From Flavobacteriaceae bacterium (GTDB lineage: Bacteria > Bacteroidota > Bacteroidia > Flavobacteriales > Flavobacteriaceae), in contig OZ245049.1 in the NCBI GenBank assembly GCA_965224465.1, positions 4,080,001 through 4,112,000 on the forward strand: 32,000 nt of DNA. Reading direction: 5' to 3'. Position 1 is the first letter of the stretch, and each line of letters opens with the position of its first letter. This document shows positions 2,341 through 23,132 of the stretch, in pieces. Both the position numbers and the translations under genes were made by a program. The notes beneath the pieces were generated by a model, which was not told the DNA's origin, did no database searches, and was given only the letters and a program-made list of their open reading frames with translations.

Positions 2341-3292
2341 TTTAAAAGACAAAGATGAATATCGTGCATTTTGTTCAGATGAAATCAATATGCCTATATT
2401 TAGTAAGGATTGGTGGTTAGATGCTGTTTCTGGCAGAGATAATTGGGATGTTATTTTAGTCAAAAAAAACAATAATATTATTGCTAGTATGCCTTTTATT
2501 AAGACAGTAAGTAAAGGGTTTTCGTTAATTATAATGCCTACTTTAACTCAAACTTTAGGCCCCTATATTAAGTATCCAAATAATCAAAATGAAGCCAAAC
2601 GCTTAAGTTTTGAGAAAGTAATAATGGACGAATTGATAACTAAGTTGCCTGATTTTGATGTGTTTAATCAAAATTTTAATTATTCAATTACAAATTGGTT
2701 ACCTTTTTATTGGAACTCATTTGAACAGACAACGAAGTACACGTATGTGATTAATAACATAAAAGATATAGATGTTGTTGTTGCTAATTTTGATAGGTCT
2801 AAAAAAAAAAATATTAAAAAGGCTGAAAAAACCGTTAAGATTAAGTATGATTTATCTGCAAAGGACTTTTACGATAATCATTCTATGACATTAAAAAAAC
2901 AGGGTGCGGATATAAGTTATTCATTCGAGTTGTTTAATTCTTTGTATAAGTCTAGTTATGAAAATGATTCAGGGAAAATCATATACGCTATCGATGAAAA
3001 GGATTTTATCCATGGCGCATTATTTATTGTTTGGGACGGAAATAGTGCTTATGATTTAATTAGTACAATAGATCCTGACACTAGAAACTGTGGTGCTGCT
3101 AGTTTGTTAATACAGGAGGCTATTCGTTTTGTGGCTGATAAAACTAATAAATTTGATTTTGAAGGAAGTATGATAGAAAATGTAGAAAATTCATTCAGAA
3201 AATTTGGAGCAGTGCAAACCCCTTATTTTTCTATATCTAAAACAAATTCTAAATTAATCCATATAATGAGAATCATAAAAAAAATAATATGA
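2321..3292 (+). CDS. GNAT-fold FemAB-like acyl/aminoacyl-transferase family protein
   Basis: 323 aa. The N-terminal SKDWWLDAV...WDVILVKKNNNIIASMPF and overall layout recall the FemAB/BioF2-like acetyltransferase group common in capsule loci. Overlaps the upstream CDS by 20 nt. Contains an A11 tract at 2801-2811. Confidence 0.55.
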   Translation: MKNKVNDLKDKDEYRAFCSDEINMPIFSKDWWLDAVSGRDNWDVILVKKNNNIIASMPFIKTVSKGFSLIIMPTLTQTLGPYIKYPNNQNEAKRLSFEKVIMDELITKLPDFDVFNQNFNYSITNWLPFYWNSFEQTTKYTYVINNIKDIDVVVANFDRSKKKNIKKAEKTVKIKYDLSAKDFYDNHSMTLKKQGADISYSFELFNSLYKSSYENDSGKIIYAIDEKDFIHGALFIVWDGNSAYDLISTIDPDTRNCGAASLLIQEAIRFVADKTNKFDFEGSMIENVENSFRKFGAVQTPYFSISKTNSKLIHIMRIIKKII

Positions 3293-7778: not shown

Positions 7779-8879
7779 ATGAAAATATTAATACTATCCG
7801 ACGCAAATAATATCCATACCATTAGATGGGTAAGCTCACTTGCAGATCGTGGGATTGAGATATTACTTTTTAGTTTACCTACTTGTACTGTTGATGCCTA
7901 TGATGTTTTTACGAATGTTATGGTTGTTGGTTGCCAAAAAGGAATGTCTAAGACAGCTGGCATAGTTGTTAAATTAAAATATTTAACAGTACTATCAGTA
8001 TTAAAAAAAGAAATAAAAAAATTTAATCCAGACATTGTACATGCTCATTATGCAACTAGTTATGGATTACTAGGTGCTTTATCTGGTTTTAGTCCATTTG
8101 TTTTGTCGGTATGGGGAAGTGATGTTTTTGAGTTTCCTGTAAAATCTTTTTTGCATAAAAAAATACTTGAATTTAACCTCTCTAGAACGGATAAAATTTT
8201 GTCTACATCCAATGTAATGGCGGTAGAAACCAATAAATATTCTAACAAAAATATAGAGATAACTCCTTTTGGAATAGATTTAAATATATTTAAGAAGAAA
8301 AAGGTAGAAAGGTTATTTTCAGAAAACGCAATAGTTATAGGGACGGTAAAATCACTGGAAAAAATATATGGGATTAGGTACTTAATAAAAGGATTTATTT
8401 TATTAGTTGAAAAGTATCCAGAGTTACCATTAAAACTTTTAATTGTAGGAAGAGGAACTCAAGAGCAAAAACTTAAGAGTATGTGTAAGAAAGCTAATAT
8501 TCTAGATAAAACGATATTTACAGGGCATATTAAACATAAGGAGGTTCCTAGGTACTTAAATATGTTAGATGTATCTGTATCTGTATCTGACAACGAAAGT
8601 TTTGGCGTTGCTGTGATAGAGGCTTCGGCATGCTGTTGCCCCGTTATTGTTTCTAACGTAGGAGGCTTGCCAGAAGTTGTAGCAGATGGTGTTACAGGTA
8701 TTGTTGTTCCAAGACGGGATGAAAAAGGACTGATGTTAGCACTTGAGAAATTAATTTTTGATGCAGGTTTACGAAAAAAAATGGGACTGGCAGGAAGAAA
8801 AAAAGTGGCTTTAGATTACGATTGGGATAAAAATGTAACACAAATGCACACCATTTATAAAAAATTACTTAAAAAATAA
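7779..8879 (+). CDS. Glycosyltransferase family 4
   Basis: MKILILSDANNIHTIRW is a typical GT4 N-terminus. The ESFGVAVIEASACCCPVIVSNVGGLPEVV motif is of EX7E type. The ORF is open from 7749, and the ATG at 7779 is preferred by N-terminal similarity only. Confidence 0.85.
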   Translation: MKILILSDANNIHTIRWVSSLADRGIEILLFSLPTCTVDAYDVFTNVMVVGCQKGMSKTAGIVVKLKYLTVLSVLKKEIKKFNPDIVHAHYATSYGLLGALSGFSPFVLSVWGSDVFEFPVKSFLHKKILEFNLSRTDKILSTSNVMAVETNKYSNKNIEITPFGIDLNIFKKKKVERLFSENAIVIGTVKSLEKIYGIRYLIKGFILLVEKYPELPLKLLIVGRGTQEQKLKSMCKKANILDKTIFTGHIKHKEVPRYLNMLDVSVSVSDNESFGVAVIEASACCCPVIVSNVGGLPEVVADGVTGIVVPRRDEKGLMLALEKLIFDAGLRKKMGLAGRKKVALDYDWDKNVTQMHTIYKKLLKK

Positions 8880-13203: not shown

Positions 13204-15132
13204 ATGATACGAACTTTTTTATTAAGAAATACGAATGTGTATGTTTCTAAATGGATGGTGTGGGCCATAGACTTGGTATTGGTATTGCATTGTTTGTTTT
13301 TTTCCTATTTTATTCGATTTAATTTTACTTTAAATTTTGACAGTCAGTCTTTTGATTTGGTGATTCCTTTTGTACTTCTATTGTCGGGATTAAGCTTTAT
13401 CATTGTTGGCTCCCACAAAGGAGTTATAAGGCATACCGGTGAAAAAGATGCATTCAATGTTTTTTTAGCGGTTAGTTTGTTTACTTGTATAGAGATTGCC
13501 GTTGTTGGACTGAATCGGATTTTTGGAATTGTTGACGGTTTTACCATTCCTATTTCTATCATAGCCATTCATTTTATTTTAAATCTTGTGGTGTTAATTG
13601 CGAGTAGGTTTGTGTTTAAAATGGTGTATCACCGTTTTACTTCAGGAGTTGAAATAGCAACTCGTGTGATGATTTATGGAGCTGGAGACTCAGGAATATT
13701 AACCTGTGAATCTATTTCAAATGATAAATCAAATAAGTACCGAGTGATTGGTTTTATAGATGATGATAAACGAAAAGTAAAAAAGAAGGTACATCGCTTA
13801 AATGTTTACGCGCAGAAGTCTGTCAATTTAGATTTTATAAATAAGCATCAATTACAAGAAATTATTGTATCCATTCAGAATTTGTCAGGAGCTAGATTGA
13901 CGGAAATTGTAGATTATTATTTGCAATTTGGAGTAAAAGTTAAAATTGTACCACCAGTATCGGAATGGTTAGATGGAAGCCTTCAATCAGGGCAAATAAA
14001 ACAAGTAAAGATTGAAGATTTATTAGACAGAACTCCTATAGAATTGAACAATCCAAAGATTGAACAAGAGTTTATGGGGAAAACTATTTTTGTAACAGGA
14101 GGGGCAGGATCTATTGGAAGTGAAATTGTAAGGCAGTTGAGTATATATAGTTGTAAGGAAATTATAGTTATTGATCAGGCAGAGTCACCTTTATACGAAT
14201 TAGAGCAAGAATTAGTACAAAAGAAATGTAAGAATCTTAAAGTTATTGTTGGAGATGTACGAGATGCCTCAAAAATGGATTATTTGTTTGCCCAGTACTT
14301 ACCGCAGTATGTATTTCATGCAGCAGCATATAAACACGTGCCTTTGATGGAGCAAAACCCTTACGAAGCCGTTAAGGTAAATGTAGCAGGGACTCGAAAA
14401 ATTTCTGATCTGTCTTTAAAGTACGGTGTTTCTAAATTTGTGATGATTTCTACGGACAAAGCAGTCAACCCAACAAATATTATGGGAGCCACCAAGCGTA
14501 TTGCAGAAATGTACGTGAGTAGTTTAAATAATATGGGACGCACTAAATTTATAACCACTCGTTTTGGAAATGTACTCGGATCTAATGGTTCTGTGATCCC
14601 ACTATTTAGAAAACAGTTGTTAAATGGAGGGCCACTTACTTTAACTCATAAAGATATTACACGTTTCTTTATGACGATTCCAGAAGCTTGTCAGCTTGTT
14701 TTAGAGGCTGGAGGAATGGGAAAAGGAGGTGAAATCTTTATTTTTGATATGGGGAAATCTGTAAAGATTTTTGATTTGGCAAAAAGAATGATTCATTTAT
14801 CCGGTTTTCAGTACCCAAAGGATATTGATATTGAAATTACAGGACTAAGGCCAGGAGAGAAATTATATGAAGAACTATTGGCAAACGAAGAGAACACATT
14901 GCCTACCCATCACGAAAAAATTATGATAGCCAAAGTATATTGCTCTGAAATAGAGAAGAAGCATTTGGATATTATTGCGCTTTGTGAACTTGGAAAAACG
15001 GCTAATAATGTAGATATAGTACGTACAATGAAAATAATTGTACCTGAATTTATATCTAACAATTCTGAATATGCAGTGTTAGATGTTAAGAAAAAGACAA
15101 AAGGTACTGTAAAGCATTTAAAGATTTCTTAA
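13204..15132 (+). CDS. Membrane-anchored polysaccharide biosynthesis protein CapD/WbpM/PglF-like (UDP-GlcNAc 4,6-dehydratase)
   Basis: 642 aa. Four N-terminal TM segments, TGGAGSIGSE Rossmann motif, YKHVP, STDKAVNPTNIMGATKR and RFGNVLGSNGSV, all typical of the family. Confidence 0.9.
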   Translation: MIRTFLLRNTNVYVSKWMVWAIDLVLVLHCLFFSYFIRFNFTLNFDSQSFDLVIPFVLLLSGLSFIIVGSHKGVIRHTGEKDAFNVFLAVSLFTCIEIAVVGLNRIFGIVDGFTIPISIIAIHFILNLVVLIASRFVFKMVYHRFTSGVEIATRVMIYGAGDSGILTCESISNDKSNKYRVIGFIDDDKRKVKKKVHRLNVYAQKSVNLDFINKHQLQEIIVSIQNLSGARLTEIVDYYLQFGVKVKIVPPVSEWLDGSLQSGQIKQVKIEDLLDRTPIELNNPKIEQEFMGKTIFVTGGAGSIGSEIVRQLSIYSCKEIIVIDQAESPLYELEQELVQKKCKNLKVIVGDVRDASKMDYLFAQYLPQYVFHAAAYKHVPLMEQNPYEAVKVNVAGTRKISDLSLKYGVSKFVMISTDKAVNPTNIMGATKRIAEMYVSSLNNMGRTKFITTRFGNVLGSNGSVIPLFRKQLLNGGPLTLTHKDITRFFMTIPEACQLVLEAGGMGKGGEIFIFDMGKSVKIFDLAKRMIHLSGFQYPKDIDIEITGLRPGEKLYEELLANEENTLPTHHEKIMIAKVYCSEIEKKHLDIIALCELGKTANNVDIVRTMKIIVPEFISNNSEYAVLDVKKKTKGTVKHLKIS

Positions 15133-15215
15133 AGGGACATTTGTTTGCTTAAATGATGGATTAGCGTCTATGTATCATCATCACAACAGATAAAAAACAA
15201 GAGTAGGCAGCATAT

Positions 15216-15256
15216 AAAAAAACCAAGTGATATAATGTATATCACTTGGTTTTTTT
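15216..15256. terminator. Bidirectional intrinsic terminator between convergent genes
   Basis: Perfect 12-bp stem CCAAGTGATATA (15223-15234) / TATATCACTTGG (15238-15249) with a 3-nt loop. Flanked by A7 upstream and T7 downstream. Confidence 0.8.
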
Positions 15257-15284
15257 GTTTTGAGTATAGTACATCAACCCCTTT

Positions 15285-16688
15285 TTAAAACAAGCCTGTT
15301 TTACGCAAAGAAATAAATCCACCAATATTTACAGGGCGATAGGTACCTGTATCAAACGAGCTACCTAGAATAATATCTATAGGTAGTTTTTTTATGTGTG
15401 GTATTTTACATTCCAAATAGCCGGAAAACTGTGTTGGTTTTGGGCTGTATTCACTTCCGAACCATCCAAAATAGGTAGTGTGACTTAGCATGGCTTTGTA
15501 TTCAATACTTTTAATAGTTCCTTTCAGACCTAGATTAAATGCCATAAAACGATTGTCCTTAAATCCTTCGGTGATGCCATTAGTACCTATATCTTTTGTG
15601 GTAAAATAAGGAGATCCGAGGCAGTTTCCAAAATAGGTCCATCCTGATTTGAATACGAAATTATTAAAATAATCATCTTTTCCTCTCGCCATAATTGGTT
15701 TGCCATTTTCATCTCTACCATGCGAAGAACTACCGCTCATGTTTTTGGTATATGTAAACTCTGTCAATAGGTGTGAAACAATAGCCGTTGGTTTTTTGAA
15801 ATCAACAAAGAACCCATAAATACCATCACGCCAATTCTGTAATTCTCTACCAGAGCGATCTTCAAAAGGATGGGAATAATAAAAGCTAATATTTTTACGG
15901 TCTCCTTTATAATCCAATTTCAATAAGTAAGACCCTAAATGGTTTCCTAAGGCATTTAAACGCTCGTTATCTACGGTGTTTGCATCTCCAGACATTCCAG
16001 AAACTACCCTTAAATAATCTTTAAAACTATGCGCCTGTTTTGAGCCGTTGATGCTAGTGCCTCCCCATTGTACATAATGGTTTAAGGCTGCCGTTAAGTT
16101 CCAGTGCTTATTTAGAGCCGCCCTAAAATAAATGCTTTTTTTATGAAGTCTTGTGTGGTCTATAAAACGAGGGTCGTTCATAAGGTAGTCTCCATACTGT
16201 CCTTTAAAAGAGAGCCATTGTTTGAAAACAGGAAAGGGGATGTATTGTGTAAGCTGGATATTGTATCCAGGTAAAGAGCGTGCATTGCCAGACTCCGTAA
16301 TATTTCCATTGGAAGAGGAGAGTCCTTGCCAGAGAATTGGATTGTGTTTTACACCTAGATCTAATTGTAATTTTTTATACCGAATACTACTGTATAGTTG
16401 GTTGATTAAGACGTCGTTTTCTTTAGCGATACTCCCTGTAAATTGAGCGCCATAGGAAAATTGCCAGTTTTTTAGATTGGAATCGTCAAAGTCTTTTGAG
16501 AGTCCAATAATCACCATTCCGTTATTGCTGTTTGGGACTGCACCTTGCTTGTTAGAAACCATCCAAAAGGGCAGTGTTTCTTTGCTAGAAAAGATAGAGC
16601 TAAGTTCTAAAGAGTATTTGTGTTTTTCTTGAGAGAATCCTTTATGTGCTATAAGTACTAGAAGTACAATAATGATATGTTTTTTCAT
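15285..16688 (-). CDS. Outer-membrane beta-barrel protein, capsule-assembly Wzi-like
   Basis: 467 aa with a signal peptide (MKKHIIIVLLVLIAHKGFSQ) and C-terminal Phe. YVQWGG...NALGNHLG...ISFYYSHPFEDRSG parallels the E. coli Wzi segments MQWGG / GNQLAG / FYGQMIGEDESG (recalled from memory, not aligned computationally). Confidence 0.55.
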   Translation of the reverse strand: MKKHIIIVLLVLIAHKGFSQEKHKYSLELSSIFSSKETLPFWMVSNKQGAVPNSNNGMVIIGLSKDFDDSNLKNWQFSYGAQFTGSIAKENDVLINQLYSSIRYKKLQLDLGVKHNPILWQGLSSSNGNITESGNARSLPGYNIQLTQYIPFPVFKQWLSFKGQYGDYLMNDPRFIDHTRLHKKSIYFRAALNKHWNLTAALNHYVQWGGTSINGSKQAHSFKDYLRVVSGMSGDANTVDNERLNALGNHLGSYLLKLDYKGDRKNISFYYSHPFEDRSGRELQNWRDGIYGFFVDFKKPTAIVSHLLTEFTYTKNMSGSSSHGRDENGKPIMARGKDDYFNNFVFKSGWTYFGNCLGSPYFTTKDIGTNGITEGFKDNRFMAFNLGLKGTIKSIEYKAMLSHTTYFGWFGSEYSPKPTQFSGYLECKIPHIKKLPIDIILGSSFDTGTYRPVNIGGFISLRKTGLF

Positions 16689-16977
16689 GTAGTTTTTTTA
16701 AAGGTGTAAAAGTACTGTTTTCTATGTAAACATAAGGAGGAGGTGGTGTTTTTTATCGCGTATGCGTATCTATAGTAAAAAAACCTTTCTATTTAAACAC
16801 AACAATGCCCAGTTGGTCTTTCTGTTCGCCATTTACAAGCCCATACAGTCCAACGTTCTTATTACTTCTTCCAAGTAGCTGGTTATTTTATTATTGAATA
16901 CACAAATAAAATACATATAAATTGAATTTTTCTCAAATTATCGCTAATTCAAAAATAAAATACAAAAAATGCAATAG

Positions 16978-17012
16978 TTTGCTTGTCTAGTCAGAATTTT
17001 AGTATAGATTTG
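16978..17012 (+). promoter_or_regulatory. Candidate Bacteroidota-type promoter (-33 TTTG, -7 TAnnTTTG) for the aromatic operon leader
   Basis: TAGATTTG at 17005-17012 fits the TAnnTTTG -7 consensus and lies 20 nt upstream of the leader ATG. TTTG at 16978-16981 and TTG at 16983-16985 are candidate -33 elements. Confidence 0.4.
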
Positions 17013-17031
17013 TCAATACAAAACAAGAACA

Positions 17032-17112
17032 ATGAATAATTTTAACACTTGGAGTTTCTGTTATTTTTACTTTTATTTGAAAGTAGAGAAGGAGACAGTA
17101 CGTGTTAATTAA
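17032..17112 (+). CDS. Leader peptide, 26 codons, rich in Phe/Tyr/Trp (MNNFNTWSFCYFYFYLKVEKETVRVN)
   Basis: Hand translation of ATG 17032 to TAA 17110-17112. 8 of 26 residues are aromatic, including a consecutive Y-F-Y-F-Y run. Lies between the candidate promoter and a terminator upstream of pheA. Confidence 0.6.
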   Translation: MNNFNTWSFCYFYFYLKVEKETVRVN

Positions 17113-17137
17113 GATATAAACTAACAAATAACAAAAA

Positions 17138-17168
17138 GTCTCAAAATTAATTTGAGGCTTTTTTTTTT
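17138..17168 (+). terminator. Intrinsic terminator inside the 5' leader of the aromatic operon (attenuator terminator)
   Basis: Stem GTCTCAAA (17138-17145) / TTTGAGGC (17151-17158) includes one G-U pair. Loop ATTAA, followed by T10 (17159-17168). It ends 21 nt before the pheA ATG, and there is no upstream + strand gene for it to terminate. Confidence 0.7.
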
Positions 17169-17189
17169 GGAAAAAACAGTAGGTAACTT

Positions 17190-18008
17190 ATGAAAGTAGC
17201 TATTCAAGGAATTAGAGGGTCATTTCACCATATTGTGGCGGAGCAATTTTTTGGAACAAACACCGATTTATTGGAATGCATGACATTTAGTGAAATGCCA
17301 GATTTATTGCATACCAAAGAGGCGAGTTCTGCTATTATGGCTATAGAGAATTCAATAGCAGGGGCTTTATTGCCAAACTATGCTTTAATAGATGAACATA
17401 ACTTGTCCATTTCGGGTGAATATTATTTGCCTATTTTGCACAATTTGATGGTTTTAAACGGGCAGAGAATTGAGGAGATCTCAGAAGTGTATTCTCATCC
17501 TATGGCTTTGTTGCAATGTAGGAAGTTCTTTAAAAGTTACCCACATATTAAGTTGATTGAGGATCAAGACACCGCTGAGGTGGCACGAAGAATCCATAGA
17601 AAAAAGTTAAAAGGGGTAGGCGCTATCGCTAGTGTTAGAGCAGCAGAATACTATGATTTAACAATTTTGGCTAGTGAAATTCAAACCATAAAAAACAATG
17701 CTACTCGTTTTGTGATTTTGAATAATTCAGGGTTGAAAACAAACCCATTAGCGGATAAAGTATCGATTAAATTTATATTGGAACACAAGACAGGGAGTTT
17801 AGGAGAAGTCTTACAAGTTTTTTCTAAGCACAATGTTAGTTTGTCTAAGATTCAATCATTACCCGTTATAGAATCACCTTGGGAATACGCATTTTTTGCG
17901 GATTTGGTTTTTGCAAGTTATCAGGATTATCAGTCAGCTATGCATGAGGTAGCATCAAGAGTATCAGATTTAAAAATATTAGGAGAATATAAAAAAAGTA
18001 AGAGATAA
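17190..18008 (+). CDS. pheA: Prephenate dehydratase
   Basis: 272 aa. PDT domain with the NNATRFVIL (TRF) motif and a C-terminal ACT domain (GSLGEVLQVFSKHNVSLSKIQSLP). Confidence 0.9.
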   Translation: MKVAIQGIRGSFHHIVAEQFFGTNTDLLECMTFSEMPDLLHTKEASSAIMAIENSIAGALLPNYALIDEHNLSISGEYYLPILHNLMVLNGQRIEEISEVYSHPMALLQCRKFFKSYPHIKLIEDQDTAEVARRIHRKKLKGVGAIASVRAAEYYDLTILASEIQTIKNNATRFVILNNSGLKTNPLADKVSIKFILEHKTGSLGEVLQVFSKHNVSLSKIQSLPVIESPWEYAFFADLVFASYQDYQSAMHEVASRVSDLKILGEYKKSKR

Positions 18009-19159
18009 TGCTTATCAATAAAGCACAAAGATTAAACGACGTAAAAGAGTATTACTTTTCTAAAAAATTAAGAGAAGTAGCGGCATTAAAATCCGCAGGA
18101 AAACCAATTATTAATATTGCAATTGGGAGTCCGGATTTGGATCCTCCAATTGAAGTTTTAAATGCACTTACGGGGGCATTGGAAGATGACACGGCACATG
18201 AATATAAAAGTTACCAAGGCATTCCTGAGTTTAGAGAGGCTGTTAGTGGTTTTTATAAAAAACACTATCAAGTAAGCGTAGATTCGACAGGAGAAATTTT
18301 GCCTTTGATGGGGTCTAAAGAAGGGATTTTACATATTTCTATGGCATTTTTAAACCGTGGAGATCAGGTATTGATTCCTAACCCAGGCTATCCTACATAT
18401 ACTTCGGTTACCAATTTGGTAGGCGCAAAACCTGTACTGTATGATTTGATAGCAGCGAATGGTTATTATCCAGATTTTGAGGTTTTAGAACAACAAGATT
18501 TGTCAAAGGTAAAAATAATGTGGGTAAATTATCCACAGATGCCGACAGGAGTAAAAGCAACAAAGGAATTGTTTGAGAAACTTATTTCTTTTGGGAAAAA
18601 GCATCAAATTTTAATAGTGAATGATAACCCATATAGCTTTATTTTAAATGATAATCCATTGAGTATTTTGGCTGTAGAAGGAGCAAAAGAAGTAGCATTG
18701 GAGCTCAATTCTTTAAGTAAAACATTTAATATGGCAGGATGGCGTGTCGGAATGTTGTTAGGAGCAAAAGAGTATATTAAAACGGTATTACAGGTAAAAA
18801 GCAATATGGATTCGGGAATGTTTTACGGCATTCAAAAAGGAGCTATTGCAGCCATGGAGCAGCCAGAAAGATGGTTTAAAAATTTGAATGCTGTTTATGC
18901 TTCTAGAAGAAAAATAGTTTGGGAGATATTAGATGTTTTTAACTGTTCTTATGCGAAGGATACCGCAGGATTGTTTGTTTGGGCAAAATTACCTGAAGAC
19001 ATGGATGCAGAAGTTTTTACAGATGAGTTGTTGTACAACAAAGACGTGTTTGTAACTCCAGGGACTGTATTTGGACCTATAGGAAAAGGGTATATCCGTA
19101 TAGCTCTGTGCGAATCGGAAGGCGATTTAAACGAAGTGTTAAACCGAATAAAACGTTAA
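18008..19159 (+). CDS. Class I/II PLP-dependent aminotransferase (aromatic/aspartate or LL-DAP-aminotransferase-like)
   Basis: 383 aa. NPGYPTY and the NSLSKTFNMAGWRVG PLP-lysine motif. The start overlaps the pheA stop (TAATG). Confidence 0.85.
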   Translation: MLINKAQRLNDVKEYYFSKKLREVAALKSAGKPIINIAIGSPDLDPPIEVLNALTGALEDDTAHEYKSYQGIPEFREAVSGFYKKHYQVSVDSTGEILPLMGSKEGILHISMAFLNRGDQVLIPNPGYPTYTSVTNLVGAKPVLYDLIAANGYYPDFEVLEQQDLSKVKIMWVNYPQMPTGVKATKELFEKLISFGKKHQILIVNDNPYSFILNDNPLSILAVEGAKEVALELNSLSKTFNMAGWRVGMLLGAKEYIKTVLQVKSNMDSGMFYGIQKGAIAAMEQPERWFKNLNAVYASRRKIVWEILDVFNCSYAKDTAGLFVWAKLPEDMDAEVFTDELLYNKDVFVTPGTVFGPIGKGYIRIALCESEGDLNEVLNRIKR

Positions 19160-19162
19160 GAA

Positions 19163-20020
19163 ATGGAAAGAATTGTAGTGATAGGTTTGGGGCTTATAGG
19201 AGGTTCTATGGCATTGGATTTGAAAAAACGTTTGCCAGCGGAAATTACAGGTGTCGATATTTCGGATGCACATGCAGAAAAAGCATTAGATTTAGGTGTT
19301 ATAGATAAGATTGGAAAGATAGAGGATGTTGTAAATGCAACGATTGTAATTGTAGCAGTACCTGTCAATTTAACGGTAAAAGTGGTTTCTGAAGTCCTTG
19401 ACTTGATAGGGGAGAAGACCTTGGTTTTTGATGTGGGATCTGTAAAAGAAACTATTTGTGAGAAATTGAGCTCGCATTTAAGAAGAAAGAACTTTGTAGC
19501 AGCGCATCCGATTGCGGGAACTGAGTTTTCTGGTCCTGAAGCAGCAATTTTAGGATTGTTTGATAAAAAGGTGAATATTTTATGTGAAACAGAAAAATCA
19601 GATTGGAGAATTTTGGACAAAGCATTGAGTTTGTTTAAAGTATTGAACATGCGAATTAAAATGATGGGATCTGCAGAACATGATAGACATATTGCTTACG
19701 TATCGCATTTGTCACATGTAAGTTCGTTTATGTTAGGAAAGACTGTTCTAGAAATTGAACGCAATGAAGAACATATTTTTGATATGGCAGGTAGTGGGTT
19801 TGCCTCTACAGTACGTTTAGCAAAGAGTTTACCTTCTACATGGACACCTATTTTTATGGGGAATAAAGAGAATTTACTTGCTTCTTTGGATGGGTTTATT
19901 AAAAATTTAAACGAGTTTAGAGCGATTATAGAACAGGAGGATTCCAATGAATTATCCAAAATAATGAACGATACTAATTATATTAAAACAGTATTGAGTG
20001 GCATTAAAGAAGATGCCTAA
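19163..20020 (+). CDS. tyrA: Prephenate dehydrogenase
   Basis: 285 aa. IGLGLIGGSMAL Rossmann motif, VAAHPIAGTE and HDRHIAYVSHLSH motifs. Starts 3 nt after the aminotransferase stop. Confidence 0.9.
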   Translation: MERIVVIGLGLIGGSMALDLKKRLPAEITGVDISDAHAEKALDLGVIDKIGKIEDVVNATIVIVAVPVNLTVKVVSEVLDLIGEKTLVFDVGSVKETICEKLSSHLRRKNFVAAHPIAGTEFSGPEAAILGLFDKKVNILCETEKSDWRILDKALSLFKVLNMRIKMMGSAEHDRHIAYVSHLSHVSSFMLGKTVLEIERNEEHIFDMAGSGFASTVRLAKSLPSTWTPIFMGNKENLLASLDGFIKNLNEFRAIIEQEDSNELSKIMNDTNYIKTVLSGIKEDA

Positions 20021-20046
20021 TCATAAATAAATAAAATAAATAAAAT

Positions 20047-20100
20047 AATTCCAAATATAGTTCCAAATGACCGTCAAGAAATAGCGTGTTTTTTGTTTTA
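20047..20100 (+). repeat. Partial, diverged left end of the ~160-bp intergenic element
   Basis: AATTCCAAATATAGTTCCAAATGACCGTCAAGAAATAGCGTGTTTTTTGTTTTA aligns by eye with the element's left TIR, first hairpin and T-rich/GTTTTA segment. Confidence 0.5.
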
Positions 20101-20252
20101 AATGAGTTAAAAAATAGAAAGATAATCATAATTATTGCTTTGTTTTAAATGAGGAGAAAACTAAAAAGAAACTGTTTGTTTTGATTTTTTGAAGATATTA
20201 TTGGAGTGTTATAATAAAAATAGGCGATACCGCTTATTGCAATACAAATAAA

Positions 20253-21326
20253 ATGGAAAACAACAAAGAATGTAGACAGTGGTTAGACGCCATGCAATTG
20301 AATCACCCTTTAGTAATAGCAGGTCCTTGTAGTGCAGAGACCGAAGAGCAAGTGATGGAAACAGCTAAGCTATTACAAAAAACAGATACCAATGTGTTTA
20401 GAGCAGGTATTTGGAAACCAAGAACCCGTCCAGGTCAGTTTGAAGGCGTGGGAGAAAAAGGGTTGAAATGGTTGCAACAAGTAAAAGCAGAAACAGGGAT
20501 GATGGTTACTACTGAGGTAGGAAACGCAGACCACGTGGAAAAGGCTTTAAAACACGGTATCGATATATTGTGGATAGGGGCACGTACCACTGTGAATCCA
20601 TTTGTAGTCCAAGAAATAGCTGATGCCTTAAAAGGAGTGGATATTCCTGTATTGGTAAAAAACCCTGTAAACCCAGATTTAGCTTTATGGTTGGGAGCTG
20701 TAGAGCGTATTCAAACAGCAGGTATTACGCAATTAGGAGTAATTCATAGAGGTTTTTCTACATATAATACGGGACATTATCGCAATAAGCCACAATGGAG
20801 CTTGCCGATAGAATTGAAAAAAGAATTTCCAGATTTACCTTTAATTTTAGATCCTTCTCATATTTGTGGACGTAGAGATACCTTATTGGATGTTTCACAA
20901 ACTGGATTGGATTTGAATTTTGATGGATTTATGATCGAAACTCATATAGATCCAGACAATGCATGGAGTGATGCTGCTCAGCAAATTACACCTGCAAGAT
21001 TGAATGAGATCACCAAAGAACTAAGAATTAGACAAAAAAGCAGTAATGCAGAAGAGTTTCAACGAAAATTAACCATGCACCGTCATGAGTTGGATTTATT
21101 GGATGCAAACCTCGTAGAATTATTATCGGACAGAATGGCTGTGTCAAGTCAGATAGGTGTTTTAAAAAGAAATGAAAATGTTTCAATTTTACAAAGCAAC
21201 CGTTGGGCAGATATTTTAAAGACCATGGTGGAGTCAGGTGAAAAATTAGGGTTGACAAAAGATTTTGTAGAAACTATTTTTAAAGCAATCCATGTAGAGT
21301 CTATTAAAATACAACAAAAGAAATAA
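20253..21326 (+). CDS. Bifunctional 3-deoxy-7-phosphoheptulonate (DAHP) synthase (type I-beta) / chorismate mutase (C-terminal AroQ domain)
   Basis: 357 aa. GPCSAE, RAGIWKPRTRPGQFEGVG and LDPSH motifs. The C-terminal ~90 aa (LDLLDANLVELLSDRMAVSSQIGVLK...IFKAIHVESIKIQ) look like AroQ chorismate mutase. Confidence 0.9.
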   Translation: MENNKECRQWLDAMQLNHPLVIAGPCSAETEEQVMETAKLLQKTDTNVFRAGIWKPRTRPGQFEGVGEKGLKWLQQVKAETGMMVTTEVGNADHVEKALKHGIDILWIGARTTVNPFVVQEIADALKGVDIPVLVKNPVNPDLALWLGAVERIQTAGITQLGVIHRGFSTYNTGHYRNKPQWSLPIELKKEFPDLPLILDPSHICGRRDTLLDVSQTGLDLNFDGFMIETHIDPDNAWSDAAQQITPARLNEITKELRIRQKSSNAEEFQRKLTMHRHELDLLDANLVELLSDRMAVSSQIGVLKRNENVSILQSNRWADILKTMVESGEKLGLTKDFVETIFKAIHVESIKIQQKK

Positions 21327-22679: not shown

Positions 22680-23132
22680 ATGAAAGCAGTTGTACAACGT
22701 GTTCGTAAAGCATCCGTAACAATCAATGATTCTATTGAAAGTTCGATTGGTAATGGGATTTTAATATTGTTAGGAATCGCTCCGGAGGATAGCCTTGAAG
22801 ACATAGATTGGTTGGTGAAAAAAATAAGCAATATGCGTATTTTTGACGATGCGAATGGAGTGATGAATTTATCGGTGATAGATGTTAAAGGTGAAGTTCT
22901 AGTTGTCAGTCAATTTACACTACAGGCAAGTACAAAAAAAGGAAACCGCCCTTCTTATATAAAAGCAGCAAAACCTGATATAGCGATTCCGTTATACGAA
23001 ACTTTTAAGCAGCATTTGACAACAGCGATGGGTCAAGATGTTAAAAGTGGTGTTTTTGGTGCAGACATGGAAGTGTCTTTAGTGAATAATGGTCCTGTAA
23101 CAATCATCATAGATTCTAAGAATAAAATCTAA
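22680..23132 (+). CDS. dtd: D-aminoacyl-tRNA deacylase
   Basis: 150 aa. MKAVVQRV, VSQFTL, KGNRPS, GVFGADM and NNGPVT motifs. Confidence 0.9.
   Translation: MKAVVQRVRKASVTINDSIESSIGNGILILLGIAPEDSLEDIDWLVKKISNMRIFDDANGVMNLSVIDVKGEVLVVSQFTLQASTKKGNRPSYIKAAKPDIAIPLYETFKQHLTTAMGQDVKSGVFGADMEVSLVNNGPVTIIIDSKNKI

Follow-up and report, generated by a model that had tools for sequence, protein, structure and literature searches.

A probable leader-peptide attenuator in front of the pheA operon of an uncultured marine flavobacterium

In an uncultured marine flavobacterium, what is the function of a 170-nucleotide (nt) stretch of seemingly intergenic DNA that precedes pheA, the first gene of a core biosynthetic operon? 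The locus belongs to a Flavobacteriaceae bacterium (assembly GCA_965224465.1, contig OZ245049.1), and the window analysed is the whole stretch from position 4,080,001 to 4,112,000 of the forward strand, 32,000 nt long; all positions below are counted from its first letter. A preliminary description, made from the letters alone, had proposed a transcription attenuator at this site, consisting of a promoter box, a short open reading frame (ORF) rich in aromatic codons, and an intrinsic terminator. Comparison with related sequences and modelled RNA folding lead to a similar view: the element is very probably a classical ribosome-mediated (leader-peptide) attenuator of the pheA-aminotransferase-tyrA-DAHP synthase/chorismate mutase operon. 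Its anatomy, its conservation, the constraint on its codons, the covariation of three helices and the in silico geometry of the switch are established here. This gives the stretch a mechanistic annotation, and the same switch occurs in every Flavobacteriaceae genome examined. Current understanding is not overturned, and the mechanism is a textbook one.

The leader ORF and its aromatic codons

The short ORF is present as it had been described, with 26 codons (Table 1). The peptide contains 8 aromatic residues (4 Phe, 3 Tyr and 1 Trp), five of them consecutive (Y-F-Y-F-Y, 17062–17076). Six-frame translation of the window, which has 32% G+C, gives 3 runs of at least five F/Y/W residues against an expectation of 2.3 ± 1.4, and 8% of simulated intergenic sequences of 501 nt hold such a run. 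The two further runs, FFYFFF and YYFFY, are found at 8004–8021 and 3275–3289, both on the minus strand and antisense to long plus-strand genes that they lie in or overlap; the AT-rich composition produced them by chance, and they provided an internal control. The aromatic run alone, in the window alone, is not significant. The combination of run, ATG, terminator, position before pheA and conservation, on the other hand, lies far beyond chance.

Related loci were collected in a scan of one genome per species, which gave 80 PheA loci (55–91% identical), all from Flavobacteriaceae/Flavobacteriales and from about 17 named genera. They include Lutibacter, Flavicella, Wenyingzhuangia, Urechidicola, Ochrovirga, Tenacibaculum, Polaribacter, Zhouia, Robertkochia, Arenibacter, Muriicola, Galbibacter, Gillisia, Flavobacterium, Maribacter, Spongiimicrobium and Ascidiimonas. 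Two loci were left out, being on contigs that end inside the leader; the other 78 (the window and 77 species representatives) have enough upstream DNA and make up the genome set to which the counts below refer. A short ORF with an F/Y run, followed by a hairpin and T-run terminator, lies upstream of pheA in all 78, with the terminator usually 15–35 nt from the pheA start. Among metagenomes a further 80 loci were found, of which 78 were analysable and 74 passed the automated test; in the other four the script had chosen another hairpin. The alignment of pheA upstream regions, suggested earlier as a check on the element, has thus come out in its favour. An in-frame ATG precedes the run in every leader, typically by 8–12 codons, and has A at −3 in 81% of sequences, within a context that is A-rich and G-poor. 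An A-rich start context is the Bacteroidetes replacement for the Shine-Dalgarno site. Apart from the F/Y run, genera share little of the leader peptide sequence.

Counting codon positions inside a run defined by its translation would be circular, and they were counted instead in the columns of a frame-agnostic MAFFT alignment of the 78 sequences. The first position of the run codons is T in 77–78 of the sequences wherever the column is ungapped, the second is A or T only, and the third is almost exclusively T or C, which is the pattern UUY/UAY. Such a strict periodicity points to selection for UUY (Phe) or UAY (Tyr) codons, since a U-rich hairpin strand alone would not yield it. The leader ORF is presumably translated.

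Five sequences form the window's own clade (the window itself, two metagenome-assembled genomes and two metagenome contigs), with PheA 90–93% identical. Identity to the window within this clade is 0.84–0.88 for the leader ORF, 0.95–1.0 for the stretch between ORF and terminator (17113–17132), and 0.92–0.94 for the terminator. The corresponding values are ~0.60 for third codon positions of pheA and ~0.5 for the 21-nt spacer that follows the terminator. The window's own element is thus itself under purifying selection.

In some relatives (L015, L028, L036, L044, L048, L086, L101 and L108), an extra 60–180 nt are found between the T-tract of the attenuator and the pheA start. These inserts often start with AATGAAA(C/T)G and contain hairpin-forming repeats, with no Rfam match at gathering score; they could represent a small mobile element or a second regulatory RNA.

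Three covarying helices and the proposed switch

The terminator is, as first described, an 8-base pair (bp) hairpin followed by T10 (17138–17168), and is separated from the pheA ATG by 21 nt (17169–17189). One of the eight pairs is G-U, and an A5/U5 extension lengthens the stem to 13 bp in a consensus scan, which changes the energy from −7.0 kcal/mol for the core to −12.3. Compensatory changes are seen at all 8 pairs in the family alignment. The leader as a whole folds better than shuffled sequences (z = −3.5, 1/200).

A convincing antiterminator had not been resolved in the preliminary description, which offered, with some doubt, the pairing of GAGAC (17092–17096) with GTCTC (17138–17142) in the 5' arm of the terminator. 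This pairing turns out to be the antiterminator of the family, by covariation in an unfitted alignment and by comparison of cognate with swapped partners. As it uses the terminator's 5' arm, it is mutually exclusive with the terminator. In all 78 leaders, a box complementary to the terminator 5' arm lies 6–14 nt past the aromatic run, and the box:arm pairs take many forms: GAGAC or GAGGC with GUCUC, GGGAC:GUCCC, GGAAC:GUUCC, AGGAUUGU:ACAAUCCU, GGGAUUGU:ACAAUCCC and AGGGCUU:AAGCCCU. Cognate duplexes have a mean energy of −12.3 kcal/mol, compared with −8.6 ± 0.3 when boxes and arms are permuted among sequences (0/10000; alignment-free), and with seven arm types no other of the 5040 permutations scores as well as the true assignment. 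In the unfitted alignment, 80.6% of cells are paired at the six core antiterminator pairs against 72.5 ± 0.8 in shuffles, with 73 double-change cells against 18 ± 10 (0/500); slid controls give 25–54% paired and 3–15 double changes. Sequence comparison thus shows GAGAC:GUCUC to be the right antiterminator pairing. In the window it is predicted at −6.4 kcal/mol with 5+5 bp, the second five coming from an inner helix in which, in the stalled state, 17103–17107 pairs with UAACA at 17129–17133.

The third helix closes a hairpin, here called 1:2, which spans 17042–17108 in the window, has a predicted energy of −18.6 kcal/mol and includes the regulatory codons; the GAGAC box is sequestered within it (Table 1). 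Family-wide, the closing helix joins the first third of the ORF to the segment just past the box, and so encloses run and box. Its sequence is lineage-specific, and its cognate strands have a mean of −10.1 kcal/mol against −7.0 ± 0.27 with swapped partners (0/10000). RNAalifold on the MAFFT alignment recovers the terminator only, and neither the antiterminator nor the 1:2 helix; these two were assessed by named structures and by alignment-free permutation of duplexes. An alternative long pairing, 17049–17066 with 17126–17144, which would suit a ribosome late in the ORF, was rejected as functional on account of two uncompensated mismatches in a relative (L001).

The stop codon lies at or past the GAGAC-type box in all leaders, and two classes can be distinguished. 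In one, found in L003–L016 and similar loci (Lutibacter and relatives), it overlaps or stands beside the box, as in AGA-UGA-GGC of Lutibacter. In the other, which includes the window, it is 21–33 nt past the run, and the translated region takes in the box and reaches the 3' strand of the 1:2 hairpin. In either class a ribosome that clears the run blocks formation of the antiterminator.

The geometry was modelled by cutting the transcript before the 3' arm of the terminator and moving a 28-nt ribosome mask along it codon by codon. The probability of pairing, P(box:arm), was scored on the box:arm pairs only, because averaging over the whole A-rich arm understates the switch in the window (0.42 = 5/12 nt). 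With no ribosome, P(box:arm) is 0.05 in the window (family mean 0.65). With the A-site on the run, it rises to 0.89 (0.94), and it falls to 0.03 (0.01) when the ribosome is 2–5 codons past the run and to 0.03 (0.06) when it is at the stop codon. The contrast between in-run and past-run positions across the family has a Wilcoxon p of 1.7e-14.

These features suggest the following mechanism. Transcription would begin near 17018 at the TAGATTTG promoter, a position predicted by analogy with a homologue in Flavobacterium psychrophilum, where the start has been mapped 6 nt past the box, and a ribosome would translate the 26-codon leader. With ample charged tRNA-Phe, and probably tRNA-Tyr, the ribosome would traverse the F/Y codons and cover or pass the GAGAC box; when no ribosome is loaded, the box would be held in the 1:2 hairpin. 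With the box covered or locked, GUCUC would be free, the terminator would form, and transcription would stop at T10 to give an RNA of ~150 nt. When Phe or Tyr is scarce, the ribosome would stall on codons 9–15, covering the 5' strand of the hairpin and leaving the box uncovered. The freed GAGAC would then pair with the emerging GUCUC, aided by the inner helix, the terminator would be avoided, and RNA polymerase would continue into pheA. Ribosome and RNA polymerase are presumably coupled at the leader.

Several points weigh against this reading. Part of the fall in P(box:arm) past the run comes from the model itself, where the mask then covers the box; even so, the fall reflects a genuine and conserved position of the box, immediately out of reach of a run-stalled ribosome. 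Equilibrium folding of the full-length leader under a ribosome mask favours the terminator at any ribosome position, or almost everywhere, which means that the switch must be kinetic, as in other attenuators; equilibrium folding of the full leader was accordingly dropped as a test, being uninformative for a kinetic switch. In the folding check proposed in the preliminary description, the antiterminator was found on the transcript cut before the 3' arm, and the full-length equilibrium fold favours the terminator. For many relatives, folding without a ribosome predicts the antiterminator (the family mean given above), so that sequestration would be weaker there and termination without translation would not be a universal limb of the mechanism. 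The antiterminator of the window is the weakest of the family (−6.4 kcal/mol, against −12.3 for the extended terminator), and has a z of only −1.9 relative to a shuffled box region. Relatives have F/Y at run positions 10 and 16, where the window has Cys10 and Leu16, so that two ancestral aromatic codons are replaced and the run is shortened. Coupling of transcription and translation is not known to have been demonstrated in Bacteroidota, a phylum in which mRNAs have no Shine-Dalgarno sites. With its 5-bp box, its Cys and Leu codons and its long ORF, the window copy is a slightly eroded variant; its predicted behaviour is the cleanest three-state switch among the leaders inspected individually.

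Table 1. Features of the attenuator locus and of the operon that follows it
Feature	Position	Strand	Details and basis
Candidate −33 promoter element	16978–16985	+	TTTG 16978–16981 or TTG 16983–16985 (19 nt 5' of the −7 box); sequence, putative
−7 promoter box	17005–17012	+	TAGATTTG (TAnnTTTG type); sequence
Leader ORF	17032–17112	+	26 codons and TAA (17110–17112), encodes MNNFNTWSFCYFYFYLKVEKETVRVN; equivalent ORF in 78/78 analysable genome loci and in metagenome loci
5' strand of long-range helix closing the 1:2 hairpin	17042–17048	+	UUAACAC; minimum free energy fold
Strand pairing with and sequestering the GAGAC box in ribosome-free RNA (anti-antiterminator)	17054–17058	+	GUUUC; predicted fold
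Regulatory codon run	17056–17076	+	F9-C10-Y11-F12-Y13-F14-Y15; sequence and alignment
GAGAC box (region 2), 5' strand of the antiterminator	17092–17096	+	
3' strand of the 1:2 closing helix	17102–17108	+	GUGUUAA; predicted fold
Stop-to-terminator spacer	17113–17132	+	Holds UAAC 17129–17132, the first four bases of UAACA 17129–17133 (A17133 is in the terminator part)
Intrinsic terminator	17133–17168	+	A-tract 17133–17137, 5' arm GUCUCAAA 17138–17145, loop AUUAA 17146–17150, 3' arm UUUGAGGC 17151–17158, T10 17159–17168
pheA (prephenate dehydratase)	17190–18008	+	First regulated gene
Pyridoxal phosphate-dependent aminotransferase	18008–19159	+	Gene order conserved
tyrA (prephenate dehydrogenase)	19163–20020	+	Gene order conserved
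DAHP synthase-chorismate mutase fusion	20253–21326	+	Order conserved in 75/75 loci with enough downstream DNA

Other explanations and the amino acids sensed

The features described could also be explained without a leader peptide that senses amino acids. One such explanation is an untranslated RNA element in which the ORF is incidental and a protein, tRNA or small molecule sets the switch. It is in keeping with the fact that all three helices are RNA-level features with covariation and with the antiterminator predicted in many ribosome-free relatives, but it leaves the three-base periodicity of the run without an RNA-structure rationale. An in-frame ATG in A-rich context in every leader, a stop codon that is always at or after the box, and the lack of any match to T-box or riboswitch families also speak against it, and it is considered improbable. 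Even less probable is a gene for a small hydrophobic peptide followed by a constitutive terminator, or a leaky terminator that lowers expression, with no switch dependent on amino acids. The terminator is indeed strong, with its extended 13-bp stem and T10, and it wins at equilibrium in all modelled states; yet a constitutive terminator 21 nt in front of an essential biosynthetic operon that has no other promoter would silence the operon, and the covariation of box and arm would be pointless if nothing switched. The peptide, moreover, is poorly conserved outside the F/Y run, and the F. psychrophilum homologue reads through in a condition-dependent manner, as reported in PMC9723704. A chance meeting of an aromatic run with a hairpin in AT-rich intergenic DNA would account for a run that is unremarkable by the counts given above, but the whole arrangement is kept in ~150 independent loci and is under purifying selection within the window's clade. 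Chance is refuted by this conservation together with the covariation, and retains next to no probability.

The preferred reading, a leader-peptide attenuator, raises the question of what the leader senses. All 78 leaders have Phe as well as Tyr codons, and together they contain 467 Phe and 212 Tyr codons, usually 2–4 Tyr per leader with a single Tyr in one of them. Three run positions have Tyr in 46–52 of the 78 sequences, one position (columns 64–66) is Phe without exception, and the second codon positions of the core run are never C or G. Three or four codons 5' of the run there is a Trp codon in 43 of the leaders, and otherwise often Phe or Tyr; a single Trp codon before the run suggests at most a weak Trp input.

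Dual sensing of Phe and Tyr is, from these codon patterns, slightly favoured. Tyr sensing is plausible but unproven, and the analogy of the AroR leader of Corynebacterium glutamicum weighs against it: this leader, upstream of aroF, contains Phe-Tyr-Phe and is reported to answer to limitation of Phe, not of Tyr (Neshat et al. 2014, as summarised in PMC11802643). The competing possibility, that the same attenuator senses Phe alone, is rather doubtful. It supposes that Tyr and Trp codons are tolerated, UAY being one mutation away from UUY and suited to a U/A-rich strand; the supply of Tyr would then leave read-through unchanged. The excess of Phe codons, the leader with only one Tyr, the invariant Phe position, the AroR precedent and the label 'phenylalanine biosynthesis' given to the F. 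psychrophilum element by its authors (PMC9723704) all agree with it. Against this, at least one Tyr codon is kept in every leader, and the recurrence of Tyr at three positions, together with core second positions that are A or T only, suggests selection for 'Phe or Tyr' and not drift; in addition, tyrA always accompanies pheA in the operon (75/75). A wider version of the dual reading, in which the element is a family-wide dual, possibly triple, sensor (tRNA-Phe and tRNA-Tyr, weakly tRNA-Trp through the almost always aromatic residue, often Trp, before the run) placed over both terminal branches and the DAHP synthase/chorismate mutase entry step, is about evenly balanced. If it is true, the universal conservation of the sensor implies obligatory coupling of transcription and translation in a phylum without Shine-Dalgarno-led initiation. 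More generally, conserved leader-peptide attenuators are indirect evidence of ribosomes closely trailing RNA polymerase in Bacteroidota, despite the unusual initiation. The interleaved Phe and Tyr codons also make this a clean system in which to ask whether one leader reports two amino acids.

Known relatives, promoter and operon

The preliminary description knew of no curated model for such a leader in Flavobacteriia, and a search of the whole window against Rfam 15 found nothing at gathering score. Phe_leader (RF01859) reaches 23.5 bits (E = 0.15) against a cut-off of 55, with only the terminator stem aligned and 63 model positions skipped. Bacteroid-trp (RF01692), Leu/phe leader (RF01743) and T-box are not among the Rfam matches at E ≤ 10 for 16690–17300, and no riboswitch fold of Rfam matches at the leader. 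Since Rfam lacks the family, annotation pipelines miss it; a new model could be seeded from the three covarying helices. Work by Vitreschak et al. in 2004 and Lopatovskaya et al. in 2010 reportedly mentions attenuators of Bacteroidetes/Chlorobi. The survey of Naville & Gautheret 2010 does not cover Bacteroidetes.

The element has already been flagged in Flavobacterium. In Table S7 and section D9 of the supplementary information of Guérin et al. 2021 (ISME Commun, PMC9723704), the 5' element of F. psychrophilum pheA, THC0290_N_0195, is listed as a candidate; its transcription start is mapped, and a 5' segment of 171 nt ahead of pheA is expressed separately. Leader-peptide attenuation is proposed there; read-through is described under specific conditions, with operon expression maximal in minimal nutrient media, and the element is said to be conserved in other Flavobacteriaceae genera and to be without an Rfam hit. 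The expression table of that study gives values of 11.5–12.4 for the 5' segment where pheA is at 5.9–7.9, both being high in other samples. The separate expression of the segment and the peak of operon expression in minimal media lend indirect support to a translated leader with read-through on starvation.

The F. psychrophilum element belongs to the same family, Flavobacteriaceae, and occupies the same site before pheA-aminotransferase. Its leader has 27 amino acids, is rich in F/Y/W (MNTNNTFYSNNSFYFYWNIGRDCYMVI) and is close to the Flavobacterium leaders recovered here (e.g. MLNNRFYFSNTYYFFWKEGRDCRMVI), which have the same architecture and bridge the two elements. In the published sequence a box:arm pair GGGAUUGU:ACAAUCCC of −14.3 kcal/mol lies 10 nt past the run and is followed by the terminator. 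The box and arm of the window's clade differ from this in being GAGAC:GUCUC, with 5 bp only, and the terminator stem GUCUCAAA is also different. The operon in the window includes tyrA, whereas the F. psychrophilum transcript is described as pheA-aspC3, the DAHP synthase gene having a start of its own. The passages on the element in that paper do not define an antiterminator or test covariation, and, as far as found, neither the antiterminator nor the 1:2 hairpin nor the switch geometry had previously been worked out for this candidate. The window thus contributes a new copy from an uncultured marine clade near Lutibacter; also new are the definition of three covarying helices, the universality in the Flavobacteriaceae genomes examined, and the absence from Rfam.

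Leaders that interleave codons for several end products of a pathway are known elsewhere. In Escherichia coli, thrL contains Thr and Ile codons and ilvL contains Ile, Leu and Val codons, while pheL has regulatory codons for Phe only. The window element resembles thrL, ilvL and the Lactococcus Leu/phe leader (RF01743) in this respect, but the amino acids, taxa and sequences are different, and there is no Rfam match here. With E. coli pheL-pheA it shares the logic, the activity of the first regulated enzyme, and a terminator just before pheA. There is, however, no homology of sequence or structure (23.5 vs 55 bits). The window interleaves Phe and Tyr codons in front of an operon that makes Tyr as well, its promoter is of the Bacteroidetes −33/−7 type, and the context of its leader ATG is A-rich rather than Shine-Dalgarno. 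The E. coli system has a short ORF rich in Phe codons and alternative 1:2, 2:3 and 3:4 hairpins, as summarised in PMC11802643. The AroR leader mentioned above is alike in having mixed Phe/Tyr codons and, according to the same summary, in controlling an operon that contains DAHP synthase by ribosome stalling, but it is actinobacterial, unrelated in sequence, and has three regulatory codons where runs in the present family have 5–9. Within the phylum, Bacteroid-trp (RF01692), a predicted Trp leader of Bacteroidetes (Weinberg et al. 2010, PMC2864571), provides a precedent for leader-peptide attenuation of an aromatic amino-acid operon; it differs in having Trp codons and a trpE operon, and does not match the window region even at E ≤ 10.

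The promoter box of TAnnTTTG type proposed earlier is present and reads TAGATTTG, with 19 nt between it and the leader ATG. An exact TAnnTTTG is found in 44 of the 78 loci, the rest having variants with one mismatch, and it is mostly 17–19 nt 5' of the leader ATG. The −33 candidates in Table 1 were picked by the Bacteroidetes −33/−7 promoter consensus. The closest upstream gene (15285–16688, Wzi-like) is on the minus strand and divergent from the pheA operon, from which it follows that the terminator belongs to the operon's own leader, as had been argued before. The gene identities proposed for pheA, the aminotransferase and tyrA are also borne out, and the DAHP synthase/chorismate mutase fusion lies further downstream; this order is kept in all 75 loci with enough downstream sequence.

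The gap between tyrA and the fusion gene is AT-rich and 232 nt long (20021–20252), compared with ~20–70 nt in most relatives (by tblastn boundaries). A second aromatic leader ORF or terminator was sought in this gap, and none was found. It may contain an internal promoter, since in F. psychrophilum the DAHP synthase gene is preceded by its own transcription start. About 1.3 kb beyond the aromatic operon, directly 3' of rsgA, is a gene for a D-Tyr-tRNA(Tyr) deacylase (22680–23132, plus strand; Pfam Tyr_Deacylase, E = 6e-59). On the other side of the locus, a perfect 20-bp hairpin flanked by A7 and T7 (15215–15257) looks like a bidirectional intrinsic terminator; it sits between two convergent genes, one at 13204–15132 on the plus strand (sugar dehydratase/transferase-like) and the Wzi-like gene on the minus strand, which would code for a capsule assembly protein.

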